Source: Nanobdellati archaeon
GTDB lineage: Archaea; EX4484-52; WAPT01
Assembly (NCBI GenBank): GCA_027038505.1
Contig: JALVWC010000013.1
Span: 55,795 to 119,794 of the forward strand
Length of the DNA stretch: 64,000 bases
Direction: 5' to 3'
The notes beneath the pieces are model-generated. The model searched no databases. It was not told the origin of the DNA and saw only the letters and a program-made list of their open reading frames with translations. The position numbers and the translations under genes are program-made. Below are positions 28,943-48,889 of the stretch, in pieces (position 1 is the first letter of the stretch; each line of letters opens with the position of its first letter).

Positions 28943-29080
28943 TGGTGGGCCCGACGGGATTTGAACCCGCGACTCCCGGGTGTCTTCCGCTCCTGCCATA
29001 CGGCAGGGAGGGCAGTCTGGTTAAAAGCTTCGCCCTCCTCGTTAAGAGCCCGGCGCTCTACCAGACTGAGCTACGGGCCC
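28943..29080 (-). tRNA. tRNA-Lys (anticodon CUU) with a ~62-nt anticodon-loop intron, CCA encoded
   Basis: Reverse complement GGGCCCG-TA-GCTC-AGTCTGGTA-GAGC-G-CCGGG-CUCUUAA-[intron]-CCCGG-GAGTC-GCGGG-TTCAAAT-CCCGT-CGGGCCC-A-CCA. 138 nt versus about 76 nt mature. Confidence 0.8.
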
Positions 29081-34163: not shown

Positions 34164-35462
34164 TCACAGAAAAAGCTCATGATAACTGGCGATGATCTCA
34201 CCGCTGAGCATCACATGCTTAACGCAACCCGGAAATGTTATGCCTTCGTAAGGTGTCCATCCGCACTTGGAACGTATCATGTCATTGTTAACTTTTGTCT
34301 CATGTTTAAGATCAAGAATCGTTAGATTTGCCGCACACCCCTCCTCTATCCTTCCCTCGTTCTCCAGACCCACAAATCTTGCCGGGTTGTAAGAGCACAT
34401 TCGAAGTATGAGGACCGGATCAAACTTTTCCTTCTCCAGGAGCCACGTCAAAAACAAGCCGTAGGTATCGAGCTGAGGCACCCCGCTGGGAGGGTTTTCG
34501 CTTTCCTTTTCTTCCGTGGTGTGGGGAGCGTGATCGCTTGCAAGAAAATCCGCAGCACCGCTTCTGACCATTTCGATCAGCTTCGCGCGTCTCTCCTCGT
34601 CCCTTAGGGGAGGGTTCATTTTGAGATATGCTCCCTTCTTCTTCATGGCGTTCTTGTTGAAAAACAAATGGTGAGGTGTAACCTCACAGCTCACCTTCAT
34701 CCCGCGTTCCTTGGCTTTGAGTATCATTTCCATGGCTTCGGGTGTTGAAACGTGAGCTATGTTGAAGTGAACTTCGGGAAAGCGCTCAGCAATCTTTAGT
34801 GTTTTCTCAACGCAGACGTATTCTGTTTCTGGAGCTCTTATTTCCGGATATGCAGCTATACCTAACTTCGAGTTTTTGAATTTTTCCTGTAGCACATCAA
34901 CCATGCTCTGCTCCTCGCAATGCAGCGTTATGGGCAGACACGCCTTCCTTATCTCCTGCAGAGCGCCTTCCAGAACCTCATAATTTACGGTCATGTTTCC
35001 CGTGCTCTGGCACAGAAACGCTTTGTAACCCACGATCAGATCCTTCATCCCGCTCAGCTCGGTTATGTTGTCGGTGGCCACGCCCCCGTAAAACTGCACG
35101 GGAATCTTTGCCTTCTTTGCCAATCTTACTTTGTTCTCTATTCTTTCTTTCGTTGTCCCTGTCGCCGGTGTGTTGGGCATATCAACCACTCTGGTCACGC
35201 CTCCGTTCAGAGCTGCCATGCTTCCCGTTCTGAAATTCTCTTTGTGCGTCCATTTCCCGCTTTCGTCCTCTCTCAGATGCACATGAATATCCATGAAGCC
35301 CGGGAAGATAAGGCAGCTGTGCTCAGCTTTTATCTTCTCCCTTCCTTTGATGCAGCTTAGGGAGACTTCAGCAATTTTGTCATTATCAATTCCTATGTAC
35401 CCTTCCTTAATACCGTCCAACGTTACGAACCTACCCTCAACAACGATATCCCGCATAACCAT
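34164..35462 (-). CDS. pyrC: dihydroorotase
   Basis: Amidohydrolase motifs FPGFMDIHVHLRE...DMPNT. Directly downstream of pyrK-pyrD on the same strand, with a 1-nt overlap. Confidence 0.8.
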   Translation of the reverse strand: MVMRDIVVEGRFVTLDGIKEGYIGIDNDKIAEVSLSCIKGREKIKAEHSCLIFPGFMDIHVHLREDESGKWTHKENFRTGSMAALNGGVTRVVDMPNTPATGTTKERIENKVRLAKKAKIPVQFYGGVATDNITELSGMKDLIVGYKAFLCQSTGNMTVNYEVLEGALQEIRKACLPITLHCEEQSMVDVLQEKFKNSKLGIAAYPEIRAPETEYVCVEKTLKIAERFPEVHFNIAHVSTPEAMEMILKAKERGMKVSCEVTPHHLFFNKNAMKKKGAYLKMNPPLRDEERRAKLIEMVRSGAADFLASDHAPHTTEEKESENPPSGVPQLDTYGLFLTWLLEKEKFDPVLILRMCSYNPARFVGLENEGRIEEGCAANLTILDLKHETKVNNDMIRSKCGWTPYEGITFPGCVKHVMLSGEIIASYHELFL

Positions 35463-37237
35463 TACCTTTTATGATAAGCTCCCACAGCTTCCTCAAGCCT
35501 CTCAAACCCTCTTTTTTCAAGCTCCTCCTCAAGCTCTTTCTGAATTGCGGCAAAAACGCTTATTCCTCTGTGAACTATGGCACTGCCTATCTGGAAGAGA
35601 GAAGCACCGCAGGCAGCATATTCAAAAGCGTCTCCCCCATCAAATATTCCCCCAACTCCGATGATGGGGATGTTCAGCTCTTCGTAGAGTTCATAGACAA
35701 CTTTCTTACCGACTTCCTTGTGCTTTCTTCCGGACATTCCTCCGTAACCCGTGGGATTGCCGAGCAGCTTGATCTCCTTCCCGTCCATTCTTATTGTGGG
35801 TTTAGCGCGTTTTGTGTTTATGGCGGTTATTGCGCTTGCTCCGCCTTCCTCGGCGGCTTTGGCAACAGCGACGTAATCGCAATTCGGCGAGATCTTAACA
35901 CTTACGGGCACGCTGTTCTTCTTTCCAACCCCCACCACAGCTTTTGTTATGCTTCTGACCAGCTCAGGGTCGTTCTCCACGCTGGATATCTCGGTGTGGG
36001 GACATGAAACGTTTATCTCTATCATGTCCGCGCCGTATTCTATAGCTTTGGATGCAACATAAACGCATTCCTCCTCGTTCTGGCCGAAGATACTAACAAT
36101 TAGGGGAACGTTAGCCTTCTTTGCATCCGTTATGTCGAGCCTGTAATTATCTATGCCGGGGTTGGGCAGACCCATGGCATTGACATATGTTCCCTCATCC
36201 ACCTCAGCAAAAGTCGGGTTGGGAAATCCCGTTCTTTCCTCTTTTCCCACCGACTTTGTGACCACGGCCCCAGCTCCGTTTCTGGCGTAGCGATAGAGGA
36301 GCATGCCCGAAACGCCAAAACCTGCGGCGTTCATGAAGGGATTGCCAAACTTTATGCCAAATAGCTCCATGCTCAGCCTTGGGTTCATCTCAACTTTCAA
36401 TGGAGGGATCGGTGGAGAGGAAATATCGTTGCCAGCTATCGCAATCCTTTTCCCGCTTTTGTCGCGCTTCCACCTTCCGAATTCCGTATTTAGCAGGAAT
36501 TTCCCATCAAACACAGGACCATCCTTACACACCCTGAAACCGAAGATGTCGCAAGCACCGCAGGCACCCCTCGCACATTTAACTATCCTTTCTATGGATG
36601 CCTGCACCGGAATGTTTCGAGCTGCTGCGATCTCGCACACCTTACGCATCATTATCTCCGGACCGCATGTGAATATCATATCGGGCTTTTCTTTTCGCAA
36701 CTCCTCCTTCAACAAATCCGTAACGAAACCCCTGAACCCGGCGCTCCCATCGTCTGTCGCTACCTTTACATCACCCGCTTTCCTTAAGTGTTCAGCATAG
36801 AGCAAATGTTCCCTGCCTCTCGCTCCCAGAAAGCTCGTGACATGCACGCCCTTTTCCTTCAGCTTCTCCGCAAGGAAACGGAGCGGAGCCGCTCCGCATC
36901 CTCCAGCCACGAGCCATGCTGACTCAAGCTCGTAAGACGTATCGAAGCCATTACCGTAGGGGCCGCGCAACCCCAGCTTATCCCCCGCCTTCAGTTCATG
37001 AATCTTTGATGTGCAATCCCCCACCCTCGCTATGGCAAGCTCGATGACACCTCTTGATGGATCAGCATGGGCGATGCTTATCGGAATCTCATCCACCCCT
37101 AGGAGGAGAACCATGAGAAACTGTCCTGCCCGGGCCTTTCGTGCTATGTCGGGAGCGAGAAACACGAAGGTCTTTATGGCTGGCGTTTCGTCCCTTATCT
37201 CGGTTATTTCGTAGAACTGGGGAAGTTTCGTTGTCAT
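35462..37237 (-). CDS. pyrKD: fused dihydroorotate dehydrogenase: electron-transfer subunit (PyrK) N-terminal half plus class 1B catalytic subunit (PyrD) C-terminal half
   Basis: N-terminal 260 aa has the FNR-like fold (AGGCGAAPL NAD motif) and the 2Fe-2S cysteine cluster CARGACGACDIFGFRVC. The C-terminal 320 aa has class 1B DHODH motifs (GNPFMNAAGFG, VVTKSVG, NPTF, GLPNPG, EINVSCPHT, IIGVGGI). The ORF is continuous. Confidence 0.8.
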   Translation of the reverse strand: MTTKLPQFYEITEIRDETPAIKTFVFLAPDIARKARAGQFLMVLLLGVDEIPISIAHADPSRGVIELAIARVGDCTSKIHELKAGDKLGLRGPYGNGFDTSYELESAWLVAGGCGAAPLRFLAEKLKEKGVHVTSFLGARGREHLLYAEHLRKAGDVKVATDDGSAGFRGFVTDLLKEELRKEKPDMIFTCGPEIMMRKVCEIAAARNIPVQASIERIVKCARGACGACDIFGFRVCKDGPVFDGKFLLNTEFGRWKRDKSGKRIAIAGNDISSPPIPPLKVEMNPRLSMELFGIKFGNPFMNAAGFGVSGMLLYRYARNGAGAVVTKSVGKEERTGFPNPTFAEVDEGTYVNAMGLPNPGIDNYRLDITDAKKANVPLIVSIFGQNEEECVYVASKAIEYGADMIEINVSCPHTEISSVENDPELVRSITKAVVGVGKKNSVPVSVKISPNCDYVAVAKAAEEGGASAITAINTKRAKPTIRMDGKEIKLLGNPTGYGGMSGRKHKEVGKKVVYELYEELNIPIIGVGGIFDGGDAFEYAACGASLFQIGSAIVHRGISVFAAIQKELEEELEKRGFERLEEAVGAYHKR

Positions 37238-37271: not shown

Positions 37272-37380
37272 TGGTGGACCGGCCGGGATTTGAACCCGGG
37301 GCCTCCGCCACTCTGGCGCGCCACCAGCTCATGGCTGCGCGGTGCCAAGGCGACGTCCTTCCAGGCTAGACCACCGGCCC
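37272..37380 (-). tRNA. tRNA-Ala (anticodon GGC) with a ~33-nt anticodon-loop intron, CCA encoded
   Basis: Reverse complement GGGCCGG-TG-GTCT-AGCCTGGAA-GGAC-G-TCGCC-UUGGCA-[intron CCGCGCAGCCATGAGCTGGTGGCGCGCCAGAG]-U-GGCGG-AGGCC-CCGGG-TTCAAAT-CCCGG-CCGGTCC-A-CCA. Confidence 0.8.
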
Positions 37381-37456: not shown

Positions 37457-38215
37457 TCACAGCTCCCGTATTTCTATGCCTTTCGAAGTTATCTCAAAAG
37501 GTATGTGCTTCACCTCATGCCCTGTTTTCCTCATCTTAACTATTTTTATGCTGCGAAATTCATCCTCCCCGAACTCAAGATAGTCCATCAACACAACGCC
37601 GTCGGCTATGAACTCGGAGAGCTGATCCCTTGTGTAATACGGCTGAGAGCCGGAGATCTCGGAGGTGAGGAGCGATGTAAAACCGAGGGACTTAAGCTTC
37701 CTTATTAGCTCCGTGATGGTGGTTCTCGCCACGAGGGGATGGGTTATTTCCGCGCCGTCCTGAATCAACAGCTCCTGTTGGGCTCTTGCGTACTCCTTCG
37801 TGTAAGTGTGGAGAAGCGCGTAAGTATAGTAAAATGTTATGGAGTCGAGAACAAACCTCTGGGGTTTGAGATCTTTCTTAAGTTCGTTTAACTTGTCATC
37901 AAACAGAGGGATCTCATCCCTCTTAAGTTCCACCACCTTCAACTTGTTTTCTTCTTCCAGCTTTTCGATATCCCATCCGAAAACGGCGGCCTGCTCTATT
38001 ATGTCTTTTCTGACCTCTTCCAGCGCCACATACACGCCGGGCTCGTTGAACATAGTAGCACCGTTGATCAGGAACTGAAGGGACAGTATGGTCTTTCCCG
38101 ATCCGGGGGGACCGCACACAACAACAGCACTCCCTTTGGGTATGCCTCCATTAATGGCCCTGTCAAGTTTCGGTATGCCGAACATAACCCTCTTTATTGA
38201 CAGCCTGCTGGACAT
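37457..38215 (-). CDS. KaiC-like / RecA-superfamily ATPase (single domain, COG0467-like)
   Basis: Walker A VVVCGPPGSGKTILSLQF. 252 aa. Confidence 0.7.
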   Translation of the reverse strand: MSSRLSIKRVMFGIPKLDRAINGGIPKGSAVVVCGPPGSGKTILSLQFLINGATMFNEPGVYVALEEVRKDIIEQAAVFGWDIEKLEEENKLKVVELKRDEIPLFDDKLNELKKDLKPQRFVLDSITFYYTYALLHTYTKEYARAQQELLIQDGAEITHPLVARTTITELIRKLKSLGFTSLLTSEISGSQPYYTRDQLSEFIADGVVLMDYLEFGEDEFRSIKIVKMRKTGHEVKHIPFEITSKGIEIREL

Positions 38216-39987: not shown

Positions 39988-40499
39988 TCAAAACTCCCTC
40001 ATCATAATTACCTGAGCTATCAGCGTGCCATCGTTCCACCGAATGGCATTCGGAACGCGTGCAACCTCCTTAAAGCCAAGCGTTTCATAGAACCTCCTTG
40101 CGATGTGATTGTTCTCGAAAACCGATAGAATGATGTATTTTACCTCATTCTTCCAAACTCTTTCGCACGTGCGTAACACTCGTGGAACAGCAACTTGCCG
40201 ATACCTTTGCCTCTGTAGTCTTTGCTCACAGCTATGCCGAACTCCGCAAGATGATTCTCCCTTCCCTCATTTCTCTCAAGCCTGGCCGTGCCGACAATCT
40301 TTCCGTCGGCCTCCGCAACAACAAAAACAAGCCTGTTTTCTCCCATCTTTTCGAGCTGCTCCTTGAGCTACCTTTTCTCCTTCTCTAACGTGATCTTTCT
40401 GTTACAGATTATGTACGTCCTCTCTTCCACGAGCTCGTTAAAGTAAGAAAGGAGCGCTTCGGCATCTTCCATTTCCGGCCCGCGTATCAAAACGTCCAT
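39988..40499 (-). pseudogene. GNAT N-acetyltransferase disrupted by an in-frame TAG and a 1-nt frameshift
   Basis: From ATG 40499: MDVLIRGPEMEDAEALLSYFNELVEERTYIICNRKITLEKEKR-TAG(40368-40370)-LKEQLEKMGENRLVFVVAEADGKIVG...YRGKGIGKLLFHECYARAKEFG. The frame is then lost in an A-run near 40160. The downstream frame continues KYIILSVFENNHIARRFYETLGFKEV, the GNAT motif B region. The ORF track shows two fragments (40140..40346 and 39988..40179). Confidence 0.6.
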
Positions 40500-41893: not shown

Positions 41894-42025
41894 AACCAGA
41901 TAACGACCATTTTCCCCAGAGATGGCGCTCAGAGAGGAACGGAAGACAACGTTGACACTAATAAACATTAATATATTACCTTTCCCAAAATTTATAACAG
42001 CACTTGTGGTTATCAACATGTTGAG

Positions 42026-44050
42026 ATGAAGGGAGGTGCCGGGGTAATGGATCTCAGAACAGCGCTCCGAAAAATGGGAGAAATGCAGAAGAGGATGGGA
42101 TCTGCAGCATCAAACAAGTTGAAAACGAACAAAACAAACACGGGAATTATTTCTTCCGAAAAAAGAGGAGAATCAACAGGTTCTATCGCTTCACGAAATT
42201 CGCGTGGTGGTGATAGCTATGCTCGTACTTTAAAATTCAGCGGTTTACTTTCCAGAATGGCAAAAAAGCTAAAAGAATATGAGAGAATACAGGAGGAAAA
42301 GAAAAGAAAAAGCGACATACTACCTATTTTCGCCGCTCATGTTGAGGGCGGGATGCCTTCAGCTTCAGCCGCACCTCCGGCTTCCGGCATTGCTTCACCT
42401 CAACAGGTCAGTACCAATAATACCGGAGGAGTAGGTGGTGGGTTGGTTGAAGTGGAAGGCGCTCCTGCATTTGAATCTCTGACCGAGGTCTCGGAAGAGA
42501 CGCTCGGCTTCATGAAGGAAATGTTCTATCTGACAAAGGAAGCGAGTGAGGAATCGAAAAAGGAAATAAACCTCAAATATCCCCTCGTTCCTCCCAATCC
42601 GAAGCCCAACGAACCGGTTTATGCATGGGCTCACATCCATTGGGACACAAAACTGAGGGGTCTGATCTATGAAGTACACGAACCCGAAATAACCCCTGCC
42701 GAGAGGCAGAAACTCGAGGAGATAAAGAGGATCATGGAGGACAAAATTGACATCTCTCTCGATCTCATAGGGAAGGGAGCTGCCATCAACTACCTTAAGA
42801 GGATGCTGAATAAGGTCGTGACTGCCTACGGATTCAACCTCACCCCCAGACAGAGGGATATCTTTGAGTACTACATCCTGCGGGATTTCATAGGGCTCGG
42901 TAAGATCCAGCCCTTAATGAATGACCCGAACATCGAAGATATAAGCTGCGATGGTGTAGGTATTCCGGTTTTCGTCTATCACAGGAATCCACGAATTGGC
43001 TCGCTCCGCACCAATATCGTTTTTGAAAACAACGAAGAGCTTGACGAGTTCGTGATTAAACTCGCTCAGTGGTGTGGGAGAAGCATCTCCGTTGCTGAAC
43101 CTTTGCTTGACGGTAGCCTTCCGGATGGCTCGAGAGTTCAGGCGGTGCTCAGCACTGATATCGCGAGGCGCGGATCAAACTTCACGATCCGTAAGTTCAG
43201 CAAGGAACCTCTGACCCCTGTGCACCTCATGGAATACGGTACAATCAACGCAAAAGCTCTTGCTTATCTTTGGTATGTGGTCGAGCACAACGGTTCGATG
43301 CTCGTTTCCGGTCCGACAGCATCCGGTAAAACAACGATTCTCAATTCCATCTCCCTATTCATAAAGCCGGAGGCGAAGATAGTCAGTATAGAAGACACGC
43401 CCGAACTAAGACTGCCTCACGAACACTGGGTACCCGAGGTTGCAAGGACGAGCGTATCAGGAGGCAAGATGGGGGAGGTCACCATGTTTGATCTTGTGAG
43501 GGCAGCGCTGAGGCAGAGGCCAGATTACATCATAGTCGGAGAAGTAAGGGGTGAGGAAGCTTATGTGCTGTTTCAGGGAATGGCAACCGGTCATGCCGGC
43601 CTGGCTACGATTCATGCCGACTCCTTGGAAAAGCTCATAGACAGACTTACAACTCCTCCGATCAACTTACCTCCTTCCCTGCTTGAAATTTTGGACGTTA
43701 TCATTCTTGTCAAGAGGTTCAAGTACAAGGGAGAGTTTGTGAGAAGGGTGACCAATATTTACGAGGTCAAGGGATACGATGCTGTTAATAAAAAACTAAG
43801 ATGCGTTGAGGTGTTTACATGGAACCCCCGTAATGATGAGATAGAGGTTGCGAGCAAATCTTACCTTCTTGAAAAGATGAGGGAAATAGCGGGAATGAAC
43901 GAGAAGGAGCTCGCAATCGAGCTGAGTAACAGAGAAAAGCTGCTTCAGTGGGCCAAAGAAAAGGGCATAAAGAATTACCGGGATCTCGGAAGACTCTTTG
44001 CGCAGTACTATTCGGACCCTGTCCGTGTCATGGAAATGATCGGTGAATAA
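42026..44050 (+). CDS. type II/IV secretion system ATPase (archaeal FlaI/UpsE/TadA-like) with ~170-aa low-complexity N-terminal extension
   Basis: Walker A VSGPTASGKTT. Asp box, Walker B DYIIVGEVRGEEA and His box GHAGLATIHAD. The N-terminal 170 aa are Ser/Gly/Ala-rich and predicted disordered. Confidence 0.85.
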   Translation: MKGGAGVMDLRTALRKMGEMQKRMGSAASNKLKTNKTNTGIISSEKRGESTGSIASRNSRGGDSYARTLKFSGLLSRMAKKLKEYERIQEEKKRKSDILPIFAAHVEGGMPSASAAPPASGIASPQQVSTNNTGGVGGGLVEVEGAPAFESLTEVSEETLGFMKEMFYLTKEASEESKKEINLKYPLVPPNPKPNEPVYAWAHIHWDTKLRGLIYEVHEPEITPAERQKLEEIKRIMEDKIDISLDLIGKGAAINYLKRMLNKVVTAYGFNLTPRQRDIFEYYILRDFIGLGKIQPLMNDPNIEDISCDGVGIPVFVYHRNPRIGSLRTNIVFENNEELDEFVIKLAQWCGRSISVAEPLLDGSLPDGSRVQAVLSTDIARRGSNFTIRKFSKEPLTPVHLMEYGTINAKALAYLWYVVEHNGSMLVSGPTASGKTTILNSISLFIKPEAKIVSIEDTPELRLPHEHWVPEVARTSVSGGKMGEVTMFDLVRAALRQRPDYIIVGEVRGEEAYVLFQGMATGHAGLATIHADSLEKLIDRLTTPPINLPPSLLEILDVIILVKRFKYKGEFVRRVTNIYEVKGYDAVNKKLRCVEVFTWNPRNDEIEVASKSYLLEKMREIAGMNEKELAIELSNREKLLQWAKEKGIKNYRDLGRLFAQYYSDPVRVMEMIGE

Positions 44051-44052
44051 TA

Positions 44053-44991
44053 ATGCCGATTTTTAACAAGGATTCGCGCACAAGCCAAGCACATCAAGAG
44101 GAGGACAAACATTCCACCATGGTATATTTTGCGGGGATAGCCTACAGGTTGTTCGGAGATCTAGTTAACAGATATTTTGTGGATTTCTTTCGGGATTTAC
44201 AGGTTGATCTTAGAAAAGCAATGATACCCCTCACGCTTACCGAGTATCTCTCGCTGGCTGTGGGAGCCGCAACCTTCATGTTCTTTTTTCAAACTCTGTT
44301 TCTCAGCATCCTGTTCACCTTGCTTTTTAAAAGTGTGCTTTTTGGTGTGTTTGGAGGGGTGCTTGGAGGAGTTGTGTTTTCCATCCTTACATTTATTATT
44401 CTTTACATGTACCCCACAATAATCGTTGGAGAAAGGAAAAAAAACATTGATGACACGCTCCCCTTCGCGACTCTTTACATGGCCACCATGGTAGGAACCG
44501 GAGCACCGCTTGTAAGCGTATTCAAAATGCTTTCCCGGTTTAAGGAGTACGGGGAGGTTGCGAGAGAGGCCAAAAGAATTGTGGATGCTGTGGAGATAAC
44601 AGGGGCGCCCATAACCCGGGTGCTGGAGGATGTTGCTGAGAGGACACCCTCCGAGGCATTCCGCGAACTCCTGTGGGGGATAAAGAGCACGATAACCATC
44701 GGGGGTGATCTGAGGGCATACCTTTACGAAAAAGCCCGCGGATTCGTGCAGGAATACAGAAGGAGGCTCGCTTCCTACACAAACCAGCTCATGATGTTTC
44801 TCGAGATCTACATAAATGCTGTAATAATCGGTGTGGTATTTTTTGTGATCCTCACAAGCGTGATAGGTATCCTGGGTGTTGGAGCGAGCACAATCATCTT
44901 TATCCATTACGCTCTCATATTTGTATTGCTGCCCGTGGCGACGGTGGCAACGGTGCTGTTAATAAGGGGAATACAGCCGGCTTCCGCGTGA
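44053..44991 (+). CDS. type IV pilus platform membrane protein (T2SSF domain, TadB-like)
   Basis: T2SSF-domain pattern PFATLYMATMVGTGAPLVSVFKML...ITGAPITRVLEDVAERTPSEAFRELLWGI flanked by TM helices. Confidence 0.7.
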   Translation: MPIFNKDSRTSQAHQEEDKHSTMVYFAGIAYRLFGDLVNRYFVDFFRDLQVDLRKAMIPLTLTEYLSLAVGAATFMFFFQTLFLSILFTLLFKSVLFGVFGGVLGGVVFSILTFIILYMYPTIIVGERKKNIDDTLPFATLYMATMVGTGAPLVSVFKMLSRFKEYGEVAREAKRIVDAVEITGAPITRVLEDVAERTPSEAFRELLWGIKSTITIGGDLRAYLYEKARGFVQEYRRRLASYTNQLMMFLEIYINAVIIGVVFFVILTSVIGILGVGASTIIFIHYALIFVLLPVATVATVLLIRGIQPASA

Positions 44992-45984
44992 TTGAGGGGA
45001 AAAGATATGAGTCCTGGAATTTTTCAAAGGGCGGGTGACAGGAAGAAGTCCAAACTGGAGGAGAAGAAAACACTTTACGAATACCGTTATCTTTTCATCT
45101 TGGGTTTTTTCATCATCATATTGCTGGGTGTTGTGTTCAGCCAGATAAACTACAAGCTAATGCCACTCTTCGTAATGCTCGGTATGTTCACTTGTATCTT
45201 GCCATACTTTGTTGTTGAGTACATGGAGTTTGCCAAATACAAAAAAATGGAGGATTATTTTCCCTTCTTTCTAAGAGACTTTGCGGAAGCCATAAGAAGT
45301 GGGATGACATTTCCCGCGGCGCTGAGAATGACGGCCAAGGTAGATTACGGGGCGCTTTCGGCAGAAATAAGGAGAGCTGCGGCCCAGCTTTCGTGGGGAG
45401 TGCCGTTCGTAAAGGTGCTTTACAAGATGGGACAGAGAATAAGGGGTAGCAGAATTCTGAGGCAGTGCATAGCGATAATCATCGAGACATTCAACTCGGG
45501 GGGAGACGTCGCAACCACGATGGATTCCCTTGCTGACAGCATGACCACTCTGCGTGAAATGGAAATGGAAAGGAGAGCCGCATTAAGCCAGCAGATAATC
45601 GTCATATATCTCGTGTTTTTCATTTTCCTCGGGCTTCTCATAGGAATGGATAAGTACCTACTGCAGAGGTTCATGACAACATTCCAGAGCGCATCAACAG
45701 CGACAACCGAGGTGGGTGGAATCGGAGGCTTATCCATCAGAATGGAAGATTACTGCAATTATCATATCGCTCTTCCGATATGCGTATTCGGTAAAATGTT
45801 CGGATTTAGCGGTACAGACCTTTATTTCAAGAGCATGTTTTTGATTATGGCCATAATCCAGAGCGTGTGTCAGGGAGTACTTATAGGTATCATGGTGGAG
45901 AACAACGCAAAAGCGGGATTTAAACACATAGCCATAATGCTCAGTATATCGCTCGTGGCACTCCCACTCTTCCTGGGAGGTTGA
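44992..45984 (+). CDS. type IV pilus platform membrane protein (T2SSF domain, TadC-like)
   Basis: Second T2SSF domain FPFFLRDFAEAIRSGMTFPAALRMTAK...IIETFNSGGDVATTMDSLADSM. Abuts the preceding gene. Confidence 0.7.
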   Translation: MRGKDMSPGIFQRAGDRKKSKLEEKKTLYEYRYLFILGFFIIILLGVVFSQINYKLMPLFVMLGMFTCILPYFVVEYMEFAKYKKMEDYFPFFLRDFAEAIRSGMTFPAALRMTAKVDYGALSAEIRRAAAQLSWGVPFVKVLYKMGQRIRGSRILRQCIAIIIETFNSGGDVATTMDSLADSMTTLREMEMERRAALSQQIIVIYLVFFIFLGLLIGMDKYLLQRFMTTFQSASTATTEVGGIGGLSIRMEDYCNYHIALPICVFGKMFGFSGTDLYFKSMFLIMAIIQSVCQGVLIGIMVENNAKAGFKHIAIMLSISLVALPLFLGG

Positions 45985-46724
45985 GAGACATGAAGAGAGC
46001 TCAGACCAACGTGGATTTCGCGATAAGTATTACCATTTTTATAGTGGCATTATCGTTCTATTTCTACACCGCTGCCGGAAAAATCATAGGAAGTAATGTT
46101 GCACTGAGAGAACTTAAAAGGGAAACGCAGTGCGGAGGGGCTGCAGCAATTCTTATGGGAAAGCTCATAAACCCAGATATGAGCATCAACACCAATTACT
46201 ACAACGCATTCGTGAAAGATTGCCCTCTATCCCCTCCACCCAACACCGTGGACTGGAATAAATACGAGGACTTCCTCAAATCCATACACGGGGAAAATAT
46301 TACGGCATACCTTCGTATGGATCTGTTCATTGTGAGTTCTTACCTCTCGCCACAACCAGGAAACGATAAAATAAAAGAGGGCACTATATCTTTCAACGGC
46401 ACCACTTATCCGGTTGTAATGTGGGAAGAAAACGGGGTTGTTTATGCCAACATCTCCGGTGTTGGGAATTGGATAAAAAAAGGAGACGTAATTGACATAT
46501 TTGGCGGTAAATATGTTGTGGAGGATGAATATATTGAGAAAAAAAATGTGCCGGATGAGGACAAAGGAGGGTACATCCTTCTTCGAAAAAAAGATCCTAT
46601 CAAACAGTGCGGTGCTTTACCCCCATCACCCACAGAAGAGGGACGTGTTAGTGCGATAACTTACCGCTTTTTCGCGACATATAACGGGCAAATAGTCAGG
46701 GTGGACTTTATATGCATGGATTAA
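45981..46724 (+). CDS. pilin-like / FlaF-G-like protein with N-terminal class III-type signal/anchor
   Basis: MRDMKRAQ-TNVDFAISITIFIVALSFYFY is a basic N-terminus followed by a hydrophobic helix. 247 aa. Start overlaps the previous stop. Confidence 0.45.
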   Translation: MRDMKRAQTNVDFAISITIFIVALSFYFYTAAGKIIGSNVALRELKRETQCGGAAAILMGKLINPDMSINTNYYNAFVKDCPLSPPPNTVDWNKYEDFLKSIHGENITAYLRMDLFIVSSYLSPQPGNDKIKEGTISFNGTTYPVVMWEENGVVYANISGVGNWIKKGDVIDIFGGKYVVEDEYIEKKNVPDEDKGGYILLRKKDPIKQCGALPPSPTEEGRVSAITYRFFATYNGQIVRVDFICMD

Positions 46725-48487
46725 ATGTCAGGAATTACCGAACCACGATTAAAAAGCGGATCTTCGGGAATCAAAAACGGAAGGGGTTTTTGAAAACACT
46801 CGAGGCAGTAATAGCGGGTTTAATGTTGCTGATGTACATGAATTACTTCTCCGCTGCTCCACTTAAAATCAAGGGTACAGAAGCCAGGAATTACATGACA
46901 TACTCAACATTACTCATGGCCACAACAATGTCAGACGCTCAAAATACACTATACAGCCTGGACGAGGACGCATCAGGCAGACTGCTCAGAATTCTAAGCG
47001 GGAGAGAGTCCAAAATAAAATTTTATCTTAATGGAATACCCCGCAAATACCTTTATGTGGGATTCCTTTTGCCACCAGAGGGAAAATTCAGCGTGAGTTT
47101 GAACACCATTAACCAAGTGCCATGCTCGAATACAACCAACTGCACCGCGATTACTGGAAAGTGCATAGAGTTCGATCTTGACGGGAATACCGCATACTTC
47201 GTTAATGAAAGTGTCATTGCGCTTCTCAATGAGAGTGGTCTGTGTGATCCCAATCGGCCGGACCTCATGATTTATCCTCAAATGCAATTCGAATACGGAG
47301 GGCATTACTACAAGTTCTTAAGAAAGGTCGAGACAGGATCACGAACAATAAACCTAGATTTTCTCAAAATCGATAGATATGTTGCATTTCACCGAAAATA
47401 TCCGGAACTCAGTACGGGATCGTTTTATCTAAACGGGAAGGACATACACATTTATTTTGATCCCATAACTTACCAGTTCCTGACACCAGATCTAGATGCG
47501 GTGTTAATTTTCAACCGCAGTAATGGCTTCAGTCCAGAGGAGGTTGAGGCTCTGCGGGAATTTGCAGAAAAAGAAGGAGGTATTCTGTGGGTTGCTGATG
47601 TTAATGCGAGCTTCCCGACCCTTCTGGGAGACCTTGTGGGTGTGCGATGGAATGGCAGTTATACCTATCCGGGGTCGGCAGCGCCCTCCATCTTTAATTA
47701 TTATCTGAGCAATTTATCCAACGCCAGATACATCGATGGTTATGAAGTTGTGGAATATTTCGAGCATCTCTGGATAGGGATTCCTACACACCTCCTTAAT
47801 CTCTCCGCTCCGGGAGTTAATATCTCGTGCATCGTCAGCGGGAACACAACCCGCCCGATAAGATATGGATGGCTAAATGTTTCCGGGGAACCCCACGCTT
47901 TCATAGTATTGAACGAAAGCTCGCCTGTTTACAACACACTCTATATCGCGAAACACCCCGACGATCTTGACCTGTGTGACGCTCCAAACGATTATATCAG
48001 GGTGAATGAAACCAACAATACTTTCTGGCTGAATGTGAGCATTGGGGGACAGTACTATCTAAACAACATTACCCTGCGGAAAATCCAGCCGTATAGCGGA
48101 TCACCAATCTACTTTACCTTCAACAGAACACATGTGTTCAGGGACTTGACTCCCGTGGAAGAAGGATACAATGCTATAATACCGATTAAGAACGACTCCA
48201 CAAGACTAATAGTTCATTCCCTTTATGACAGGGTTGCAGACGGTCAGTTTCCAGCACCCGTGCTGATCTTACAGGAAATAAACAACACCTACAGATCTGG
48301 ATGGATGACCGCTCAGATCAACGGAACCGATGAGGAAGAACTTTTCGCTGATGCATTGTTATGGGTGATGAGAAAACACAGCTACAAGATGCTTACGGAC
48401 AGGGGCTACCAGTACAGTTTTGTTATTCCTGTTGCTTGGATTAACGAAACAAAGTTGATTGGGTCCGCTGAAATCCGGGTGTGGTGA
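46712..48487 (+). CDS. large secreted protein with type IV prepilin-like (class III) signal peptide and ~30 N-glycosylation sequons
   Basis: N-terminus KRKG-FLKTLEAVIAGLMLLMY has G at -1, F at +1 and E at +5 as in type IV prepilins. 591 aa with many N-x-S/T sequons (NTTNCT, NESV, NRSN, NASF, NGSY, NLSN, NISC, NTTR, NVSG, NESS, NETNNTF, NVSI, NITL, NRTH, NDST, NNTY, NGTD, NETK). Confidence 0.6.
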   Translation: MHGLNVRNYRTTIKKRIFGNQKRKGFLKTLEAVIAGLMLLMYMNYFSAAPLKIKGTEARNYMTYSTLLMATTMSDAQNTLYSLDEDASGRLLRILSGRESKIKFYLNGIPRKYLYVGFLLPPEGKFSVSLNTINQVPCSNTTNCTAITGKCIEFDLDGNTAYFVNESVIALLNESGLCDPNRPDLMIYPQMQFEYGGHYYKFLRKVETGSRTINLDFLKIDRYVAFHRKYPELSTGSFYLNGKDIHIYFDPITYQFLTPDLDAVLIFNRSNGFSPEEVEALREFAEKEGGILWVADVNASFPTLLGDLVGVRWNGSYTYPGSAAPSIFNYYLSNLSNARYIDGYEVVEYFEHLWIGIPTHLLNLSAPGVNISCIVSGNTTRPIRYGWLNVSGEPHAFIVLNESSPVYNTLYIAKHPDDLDLCDAPNDYIRVNETNNTFWLNVSIGGQYYLNNITLRKIQPYSGSPIYFTFNRTHVFRDLTPVEEGYNAIIPIKNDSTRLIVHSLYDRVADGQFPAPVLILQEINNTYRSGWMTAQINGTDEEELFADALLWVMRKHSYKMLTDRGYQYSFVIPVAWINETKLIGSAEIRVW

Positions 48488-48499
48488 GGTGAAAAAACC

Positions 48500-48889
48500 A
48501 TGTTTAGGTTTAGAAGAGAATCTCTAAGAAGGAAACGAAGAAAAGGACAGTTTTATCTTCTTGCGGTCATAGTCCTTCTTCTCAGTTTTGGTCATTTACT
48601 GTCCTCTTTGGGTGGTAATCTCGTCTTTGACCTCAGCAAGGTGATGGGTAATGAGTATTATCTGATAAACTTCAAAATCACGAGAGACATAGAGTTGCTA
48701 AACAAAACGTGCACAAGAGAACAGCTAGATATTTATGTTCCCTGGTATATGAGCGTGGTATCACGTGAGTATTCCAAACGGGGTATCGTGATCAAGTGGT
48801 TCTACGGTTATGGGTTTACTCCACGGATTTTGAAGTTCACCATAGCATCTGAAGACTACTACTTAGAAAAAATTATGACTTTGAAGTAA
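48500..48889 (+). CDS. small pilin-like protein with archaeal class III signal peptide
   Basis: MFRFRRESLRRKRRKGQ-FYLLAVIVLLLSFG has the [KR]GQ cleavage motif followed by a hydrophobic helix. 129 aa. Confidence 0.55.
   Translation: MFRFRRESLRRKRRKGQFYLLAVIVLLLSFGHLLSSLGGNLVFDLSKVMGNEYYLINFKITRDIELLNKTCTREQLDIYVPWYMSVVSREYSKRGIVIKWFYGYGFTPRILKFTIASEDYYLEKIMTLK

Follow-up and report, generated by a model that had tools for sequence, protein, structure and literature searches.

A six-gene locus encoding a type IV pilus or filament assembly system was found in a 64,000-nucleotide stretch of the genome of a Nanobdellati archaeon (assembly GCA_027038505.1, contig JALVWC010000013.1, positions 55,795 to 119,794; hereafter the window), comprising a secretion ATPase, a membrane platform divided over two genes and three proteins with class-III-like signals (p247, p591 and p129). 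With moderate confidence, the locus is regarded here as a chromosomal type IV filament operon of the euryarchaeal/DPANN kind, in which the three pilin-like proteins form a minor-pilin tip complex and the shaft is supplied in trans. The motor and the split platform are already well documented among euryarchaeal and DPANN split-platform type IV pili (T4P), and the novelty is modest, residing in the pilin trio, which is unannotated and confined to one clade and has a rare predicted GATase1-like glycoprotein among its members. How host-dependent DPANN archaea find and hold their hosts is largely unknown and pili are often invoked, while DPANN pilins usually go unannotated, as in the statement that 'no pilins were annotated' (PMC9563170). 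The locus provides a concrete, conserved candidate set for this role, namely three class-III-signal proteins travelling with a split-platform motor in one DPANN clade, and its value lies in guiding annotation and in offering p591 as a candidate adhesin rather than in a new kind of machine.

Motor ATPase and split platform

The six co-oriented open reading frames (ORFs) abut or overlap exactly as stated in the original prediction, lengths included (Table 1), the first two genes lying 2 nt apart, the second directly adjoining the third, the next two junctions overlapping by 4 and 13 nt and the last leaving a gap of 12 nt. Gene calls made independently on two Logan contigs with an identical locus gave products of 667, 312, 325, 244, 591 and 129 amino acids (aa), so the true starts are likely ATG 42047 for the ATPase (with GGAGGTG upstream), 45007 for the second platform gene and 45990 for p247. 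A putative archaeal promoter precedes the operon, its TATA-like element ~30 nt before ATG 42026, or ~50 nt before the likelier start at ATG 42047. The 'atypical composition' ascribed to the block, if taken as nucleotide composition, was not borne out, as its GC content of 0.43-0.49 falls within the range of the window (0.42-0.52).

One secretion ATPase and two T2SSF membrane proteins had been claimed for the block, and Pfam recognized all three above gathering scores, the T2SSE domain of the ATPase at 8.7e-38. The first ~200 residues of the ATPase are low-complexity by eye, and the motifs are intact, including the Walker A motif GPTASGKTT, the Asp box IVSIEDTPEL, the Walker B motif RPDYIIVGEVRGEEA and the His box TGHAG, all aligning to those of AfGspE and FlaI. 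The C-terminus is PilB3_C-like with 25.6 bits, under the cut-off of 27. Comparison with Protein Data Bank (PDB) structures ranked A. fulgidus GspE (AfGspE, 2OAP) first with 409 bits over residues 212-670, followed by S. acidocaldarius FlaI with 306 and CpaF with 165, which does not support the suggested Tad/Ups-like affinity. The NCBIfam matches to FlaI (439 vs 550), BasE (240 vs 1000) and TadA (184 vs 373) were below cut-off.

AfGspE (AF0659) has been assigned to Clade 2, arCOG01817 (Makarova, Koonin & Albers 2016, PMC4858521). In a neighbour-joining (NJ) tree, the window ATPase was located among DPANN ATPases, in a clade whose sister group comprises Thermoplasmatota ATPases and AfGspE, with FlaI outside and the ATPases of Nitrososphaeria and Bathyarchaeia far away. 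Among the references compared (AfGspE, FlaI and CpaF), the one nearest to the window ATPase was thus AfGspE (Clade 2), not FlaI or bacterial CpaF, and the affinity is read as lying apart from Ups/Aap pili, with Clade 2 and Clade 1/System 1 both as candidate placements.

Inteins with LAGLIDADG homing endonucleases were observed to break the ATPase gene in the pilus loci of several relatives from Aenigmatarchaeota (L041:8026-12012, L057:8143-13707 and L032:1763-5047), the products reaching 1094-1854 aa. The length of the L057 gene allows for more than one intein, which it may contain, and the window ATPase is intein-free.

The two platform proteins, F1 and F2, match different portions of known platform models, F1 spanning 9-248 of the 555 positions in one FlaJ model and F2 180-449 of the 465 positions in another. 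They align to the N-terminal and the C-terminal halves, respectively, of fused 480-630-aa platforms from Bathyarchaeia and Nitrososphaerales loci, and on the UpsF model F1 matched the N-terminal half only (66 bits vs a cut-off of 400). As each of them covers one half of the FlaJ models and of the fused homologues, F1 and F2 together amount to one FlaJ/PilC in two genes. The order ATPase-F1-F2 recurs in ~35 related loci, among them nearly all the closer relatives, spanning Aenigmatarchaeota, Nanohaloarchaeota, Iainarchaeota, Woesearchaeota and Thermoplasmatota. Fused platforms were met in the survey almost only beside ATPases that are ~35% identical; with these relatives so distant and AfGspE nearest to the ATPase, the resemblance to Ups/Aap pili drawn from the gene order was not sustained.

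The split platform had also been considered a misfit with the characterised archaeal systems, but precedents exist beyond the ~35 surveyed loci. The Epd pilus of M. maripaludis employs two PilC paralogues, EpdJ and EpdK, both of them essential, encoded beside EpdL and likened to TadB/TadC (PMC4371748). Two TadC components are found in Clade 1 and two tadC genes in many Clade 2 loci (Makarova 2016, PMC4858521), and a later census assigns a pair of platform genes to System 1 (methanogens and DPANN), System 4A (some DPANN) and System 4B (Sivabalasarma & Albers 2026). Clusters of the TadB/TadC type have been recorded in Nanohaloarchaeota and Undinarchaeota (PMC9563170).

The Thermoplasmatota loci L026-L030 feature tandem paralogous secretion ATPase genes upstream of one F1/F2 pair, after which very large proteins (880-1410 aa) with N-terminal hydrophobic helices are encoded, resembling the Aciduliprofundum arrangement (Makarova 2016).

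The pilin-like proteins p247, p591 and p129

Each of the three downstream proteins bears a single N-terminal hydrophobic helix after its signal. The signal of p247, MKRA/QTNVD (a slash marks the presumed cleavage site), has Gln at +1 and Asp at +5, resembling the +1 Gln, +5 acidic signature of EppA substrates in Methanococcus (PMC4371748); further along the protein come a conserved Cys and, at the C-terminus, a beta strand. In p129 the +1 position is likewise Gln, with no acidic residue nearby and a globular C-terminal part, and the p591 signal KRKG/FLKTLEAVIAG has Phe at +1 and Glu at +6. The p247 family motif [KR][GA]/Q-x-x-[IVL]-[DE]-[FY] is kept in 10 further loci, always in the first gene after F2, and p591 orthologues keep M(x)KG/[FY]-x-[HKR]-x-x-E. 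The p247 family consists of 19 clusters, of which the named ones are Aenigmatarchaeota hypothetical proteins, and 9 of 11 family members match weakly to the N-terminus of DUF7287, for which no literature was found in the library searched. None of the trio belongs to a Pfam or NCBIfam family above threshold.

Orthologues at the same position keep the class-III-like motifs even in lineages with ATPase identities of only 52-59%. Since conservation over such distances argues against chance, the class III signals originally predicted on the 247-, 591- and 129-aa proteins are well supported by conservation, and all three proteins are presumably cleaved. Conservation was the basis of this judgement, as a home-made FlaFind-like regular expression was too permissive, returning many spurious ORFs, and was not used as evidence.

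The complete six-gene order is present in four other DPANN loci (L001, L002, L004 and L005), where p129 orthologues with the RKG/QF motif occupy the same position. The pair of a p247-like and a large protein is found in L008-L010, L012, L041 and L057, and in the Aenigmatarchaeota loci among these, L008-L010, L041 and L057, p129 is seemingly missing. All six genes are under purifying selection, with ratios of non-synonymous to synonymous substitution rates (dN/dS) of 0.05-0.19 against L002 (p247 0.10, p129 0.19). The dN values of the three pilin-like genes against L001 are 0.34-0.56 compared with 0.18-0.23 for the motor, and this 2-3 times faster divergence is as expected for exposed components.

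In the metagenome-assembled genome (MAG) NJEA01, one set of ATPase/F1/F2 paralogues (L012) is accompanied by this pilin set and another (L021) by PilA-type pilins with an MKG/ISP motif, a pairing that fits the modular model of Makarova, in which pilin sets are exchanged between modules. PilA-type pilins also adjoin L018 and L022, which belong, together with L021, to the same ATPase clade.

The largest member of the trio, p591, is predicted to be heavily N-glycosylated and surface-exposed, containing 22 N-X-S/T sequons vs 5.4 expected, a density of 3.7 per 100 aa vs 0.38 in 15 other large, mostly cytoplasmic window proteins. Its AlphaFold2 (AF2) model, calculated with a 12-row alignment of representatives, starts with a long N-terminal helix (H17-46), and a GATase1/ThuA/GldG(GIFT)-like alpha/beta domain followed by beta-rich C-terminal domains is predicted. 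The fold relatives include ThuA-like and GldG/ABC_transp_aux proteins, which are linked to sugar use or transport. As the wider p591 family has no invariant Cys or His, the GATase1-like domain is probably non-catalytic. The family is rare, with 13 representatives among 1.84 billion, of which a word-indexed search (10-sequence alignment) retrieved only the two already known and an exhaustive search of the representatives a further 11. No GATase1/GldG-like fold is mentioned for pilus components in the two archaeal pilus censuses consulted.

The giant pilin-like protein had been said not to fit the well-characterised archaeal systems, but large class-III proteins are known: arCOG02911 minor pilins are 250-550 aa long, all-beta and Ig-like (Makarova 2016, PMC4858521), the H. 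volcanii PilB4 locus encodes a pair of 'relatively large pilins', and adhesin-like class-III proteins of large size occur in several systems (Makarova 2016; Sivabalasarma & Albers 2026; PMC4371748).

A proposed minor-pilin tip complex and the alternatives

The identification as a type IV pilus or filament assembly locus was confirmed, and among the closest known systems are the Clade 2 pili (the loci of A. fulgidus AfGspE and of H. volcanii PilB3/PilB4). The ATPase aligns to AfGspE over its core and C-terminal domain, many Clade 2 loci contain two tadC genes and a 250-550-aa minor pilin, and the tandem ATPases of related Thermoplasmatota resemble the Aciduliprofundum arrangement of Clade 2. 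The pilin trio fits none of the Pfam or NCBIfam pilin families above threshold, and a predicted alpha/beta domain is part of the p591 model, whereas arCOG02911 proteins are all-beta and Ig-like. Clade 2 is also marked by PilA or arCOG03926 major pilins, and no PilA-type N-terminus occurs in the window. In the Epd/System 1 pilus, too, a single ATPase (EpdL) is encoded together with a pair of platform paralogues (EpdJ and EpdK) and there are several minor pilins; its pilin signals have +1 Gln and an acidic +5 residue (RAQI, KGQV), a combination that p247 resembles and p129 and p591 do not have in full, and System 1 has been reported in DPANN. The Epd locus holds at least 11 genes, in contrast to six here, and neither the locus nor the window contains a 9-transmembrane (TM) EppA or a ~70-aa Flp-like major pilin of the arCOG06620 type, although both may lie in other parts of the genome, nor does the locus encode a DUF2341/PilY-like adhesin or MinD/FleN. 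The short Epd major pilin is also devoid of a globular domain, whereas the trio here all have sizeable C-terminal parts. The Ups/Aap pili of Sulfolobales (Clade 4) show the same order of ATPase, platform and pilins, and an adhesive role is plausible, but their platform is a single fused UpsF/AapF. An already described family of identical architecture had been named as the outcome that would count against the originality of the locus; the ATPase/platform module does belong to a described family, while the pilin trio matches no Pfam or NCBIfam family above threshold.

In the proposed working, the three preproteins would enter the membrane, where a class III signal peptidase from another locus would process them; the +1 Gln of p247 and p129 is reminiscent of EppA-type substrates. 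The ATPase would dock on the F1-F2 heterodimer and drive the extraction of subunits from the membrane, and the subunits would form a helical fibre joined through their N-terminal helices. The trio would constitute a minor-pilin complex for priming or at the tip, following a logic like that of GspI/J/K or PilVWX-PilY1, in which p591 would serve as an adhesive head, probably contacting glycans, on a shaft whose pilin is supplied in trans. The likely use in a DPANN archaeon would be attachment to a host cell or a surface.

The tip complexes of the type II secretion system (GspI/J/K) and of type IVa pili (PilVWX-PilY1) consist of co-encoded pilin-like proteins of graded size, the largest of which has an extra globular domain. 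The likeness to these bacterial complexes is a functional analogy only, with an acidic residue near +5 in some, not all, of the proteins. A tip complex is favoured because none of the trio looks like a typical small, abundant shaft pilin, and because p129 was not found in several loci that keep the other two proteins and PilA-type pilins accompany paralogous motors from the same clade.

Several points weigh against this reading. The idea of a tip complex draws on analogy, size and sequence features, and p129 or p247 could instead be the major subunit. No prepilin peptidase was detected in the 64-kb window by a GxGD-type motif scan and Pfam on multi-TM ORFs, all of which are transporters or channels, or among the Pfam-annotated called genes in the ~10 kb beyond each window end, and no PilA-type major pilin was found in the window or the ~10 kb flanking it at either end. 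The p591 model reached moderate quality, with a mean predicted local distance difference test (pLDDT) score of 69.7 and 110 residues <50, and a Foldseek search of it against the PDB gave nothing significant. The NJ tree of the ATPases carries no bootstrap values and no Epd (Clade 1) reference, and is indicative only. Both the prepilin peptidase and the major pilin are often encoded in trans in archaea (PMC4858521; PMC4371748).

A cluster of four co-oriented, unannotated proteins of 145, 164, 231 and 748 aa was observed ~2-6 kb past the 3' end of the window (L063:7730-11590, corresponding to ~65.8-69.7 kb). All four have hydrophobic helices at the N-terminus and three carry class-III-like motifs (KKGG/LSYTQVF, KMKG/LGLEIPIF and KNKA/FASVLAVAILL), and the largest contains 23 Cys. 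Neither an ATPase nor a platform gene adjoins the cluster. In a test for paralogy, no similarity was detectable between this cluster and p247, p591 or p129. The cluster could represent a trans-supplied pilin set.

A more specific form of the tip-complex reading, put forward only tentatively and judged unlikely, holds that the trio is a new, lineage-specific tip or priming complex of Aenigmatarchaeota-like DPANN, in which the head, a heavily glycosylated and non-catalytic GATase1/GldG(GIFT)-like domain of p591, may read glycans on the host-cell surface and act as an adhesin in episymbiosis, with an ordinary split-platform motor delivering it.

The main rival, although unlikely by our estimate, is a self-contained pilus in which p129 or p247 (the likeliest candidates) is the major shaft pilin and p591 a minor subunit or adhesin. 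It would account for the conservation of the six-gene module as a unit with no further pilin gene attached, and for the window being devoid of a PilA-type gene, and p129 is of a length usual for archaeal pilins, with a clean RKG/QF signal. On the other hand, p129 is seemingly missing from L008-L010, L041 and L057, which keep the p247-like and large proteins, the same-clade loci L018, L021 and L022 adjoin PilA-type pilins, and the class-III-like cluster of L063 could supply the subunits.

A bindosome-like or pseudopilus display, with a short stalk holding p591 as a substrate or glycan binder for nutrient scavenging, is improbable. Class-III-signal binding proteins have been proposed to 'functionalise' archaeal type IV filament machines (Sivabalasarma & Albers 2026), and both the ThuA-like and GldG/ABC_transp_aux fold relatives of p591 and weak NCBIfam matches to BasE and BasF agree with such a display. 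Those matches are, however, far below cut-off (240 bits vs 1000 for BasE and 37.5 vs 1300 for BasF), p591 matches no solute-binding-protein family in Pfam or NCBIfam, and no ABC transporter is adjacent, the flanks being a CitMHS transporter, replication factor C (RFC) and Cdc48.

A pilus for DNA uptake, as suggested for Undinarchaeota and Nanohaloarchaeota pili, is very improbable here. It has been speculated that DPANN pili bring in DNA for nucleotide salvage (PMC7414124; PMC9563170), which is itself inference, and neither the locus nor its flanks encode anything resembling a channel or receptor for DNA, or a nuclease.

An archaellum or a horizontally acquired bacterial-type Tad pilus is effectively refuted: the FlaI model is the top NCBIfam match and the split platform by a single ATPase recalls TadB/TadC of Tad/Flp systems, but the FlaI model scores below its cut-off, S. 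acidocaldarius FlaI scores lower than AfGspE, no archaellin, FlaF (ArlF), FlaG (ArlG) or FlaH (ArlH) is encoded in or beside the block, where the nearby KaiC-like protein is not ArlH, and the ATPase is far from TadA/CpaF in a locus of ordinary GC and syntenic flanks that has no Flp pilin, secretin or TadZ. For Tad itself, an origin in an Epd-like system of archaea has been proposed (Sivabalasarma & Albers 2026).

Genomic setting and neighbouring genes

The pilus ATPase is 96% identical to that of a 'Nanobdellati archaeon' MAG (L002) and 73% to that of an unclassified archaeal MAG (L001), followed by relatives of 50-59% identity, mostly from Aenigmatarchaeota MAGs. As the closest ATPase loci come from 'Nanobdellati' and Aenigmatarchaeota MAGs, the source organism is taken to be a DPANN archaeon. 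The operon is flanked by the CitMHS transporter upstream and by the RFC large subunit, Cdc48 and Hsp20 downstream, and the housekeeping flanks are syntenic in L001 and L002. Because of this synteny and the ordinary GC content, the locus is considered a stable chromosomal operon rather than an island, and an origin by a mobile island or horizontal gene transfer was ruled out on the same grounds.

Table 1. Coordinates in the window of the six-gene locus and associated features
Feature	Position	Strand	Remarks
Six ORFs	42026-48889	+	674/312/330/247/591/129 aa, read from the sequence
PilB/AfGspE-type secretion ATPase	42026..44050	+	674 aa as longest ORF; 667 aa from likely start 42047
Platform half F1	44053..44991	+	312 aa; Pfam T2SSF 1.6e-15, above gathering score
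Platform half F2	44992..45984	+	330 aa (325 from 45007); Pfam T2SSF 3.2e-20, above gathering score
Pilin-like p247	45981..46724	+	247 aa (244 from likely start 45990); signal MKRA/QTNVDFAISITIF
Large pilin-like p591	46712..48487	+	591 aa; signal KRKG/FLKTLEAVIAGLML
Small pilin-like p129	48500..48889	+	signal RRKG/QFYLLAVIVLLL; one N-terminal hydrophobic helix
Putative archaeal promoter	41985..41997	+	A-rich stretch like a B recognition element (BRE), then TATA-like TTTATAA 41991-41997; read from the sequence
Single-domain KaiC-like ATPase	37457..38215	-	Pfam KaiC 2.2e-60; outside the operon

KaiC ATPases have been named as candidate T4P regulators (Makarova 2016, PMC4858521), and the KaiC-like ATPase of the window is possibly a loosely linked regulator of the pilus. 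It is not ArlH, with 51 bits vs a cut-off of 215. Its orthologues in L001 and L058 lie close upstream of the pilus ATPase in divergent orientation, and in the window and L002 an inserted stretch parts the KaiC-like gene from the operon, consisting of a nucleotidyltransferase, a 166-aa ORF, a split GNAT gene, a tRNA-Gly and the CitMHS transporter. The GNAT acetyltransferase (39988-40346, minus strand) is split over two overlapping short ORFs of 63 and 68 aa; the independent gene call on a Logan contig split it in the same way, and it may represent a frameshift or a pseudogene.

The RNA genes of the window comprise an archaeal signal recognition particle (SRP) RNA, a 5S rRNA and two overlong tRNA matches. 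The latter were reported by Rfam at 28946-29080 (135 nt) and 37275-37380 (106 nt), both on the minus strand, and were missed by ARAGORN. Since lengths of 106 and 135 nt are unusual and ARAGORN reported neither, both probably contain introns.

A 591-aa PyrK-PyrD fusion is encoded at 35462-37237 on the minus strand, in which residues 6-266 correspond to PyrK, the electron-transfer subunit of dihydroorotate dehydrogenase, and residues 288-588 to the catalytic subunit PyrD, with a dihydroorotase gene adjoining at 34164-35462.

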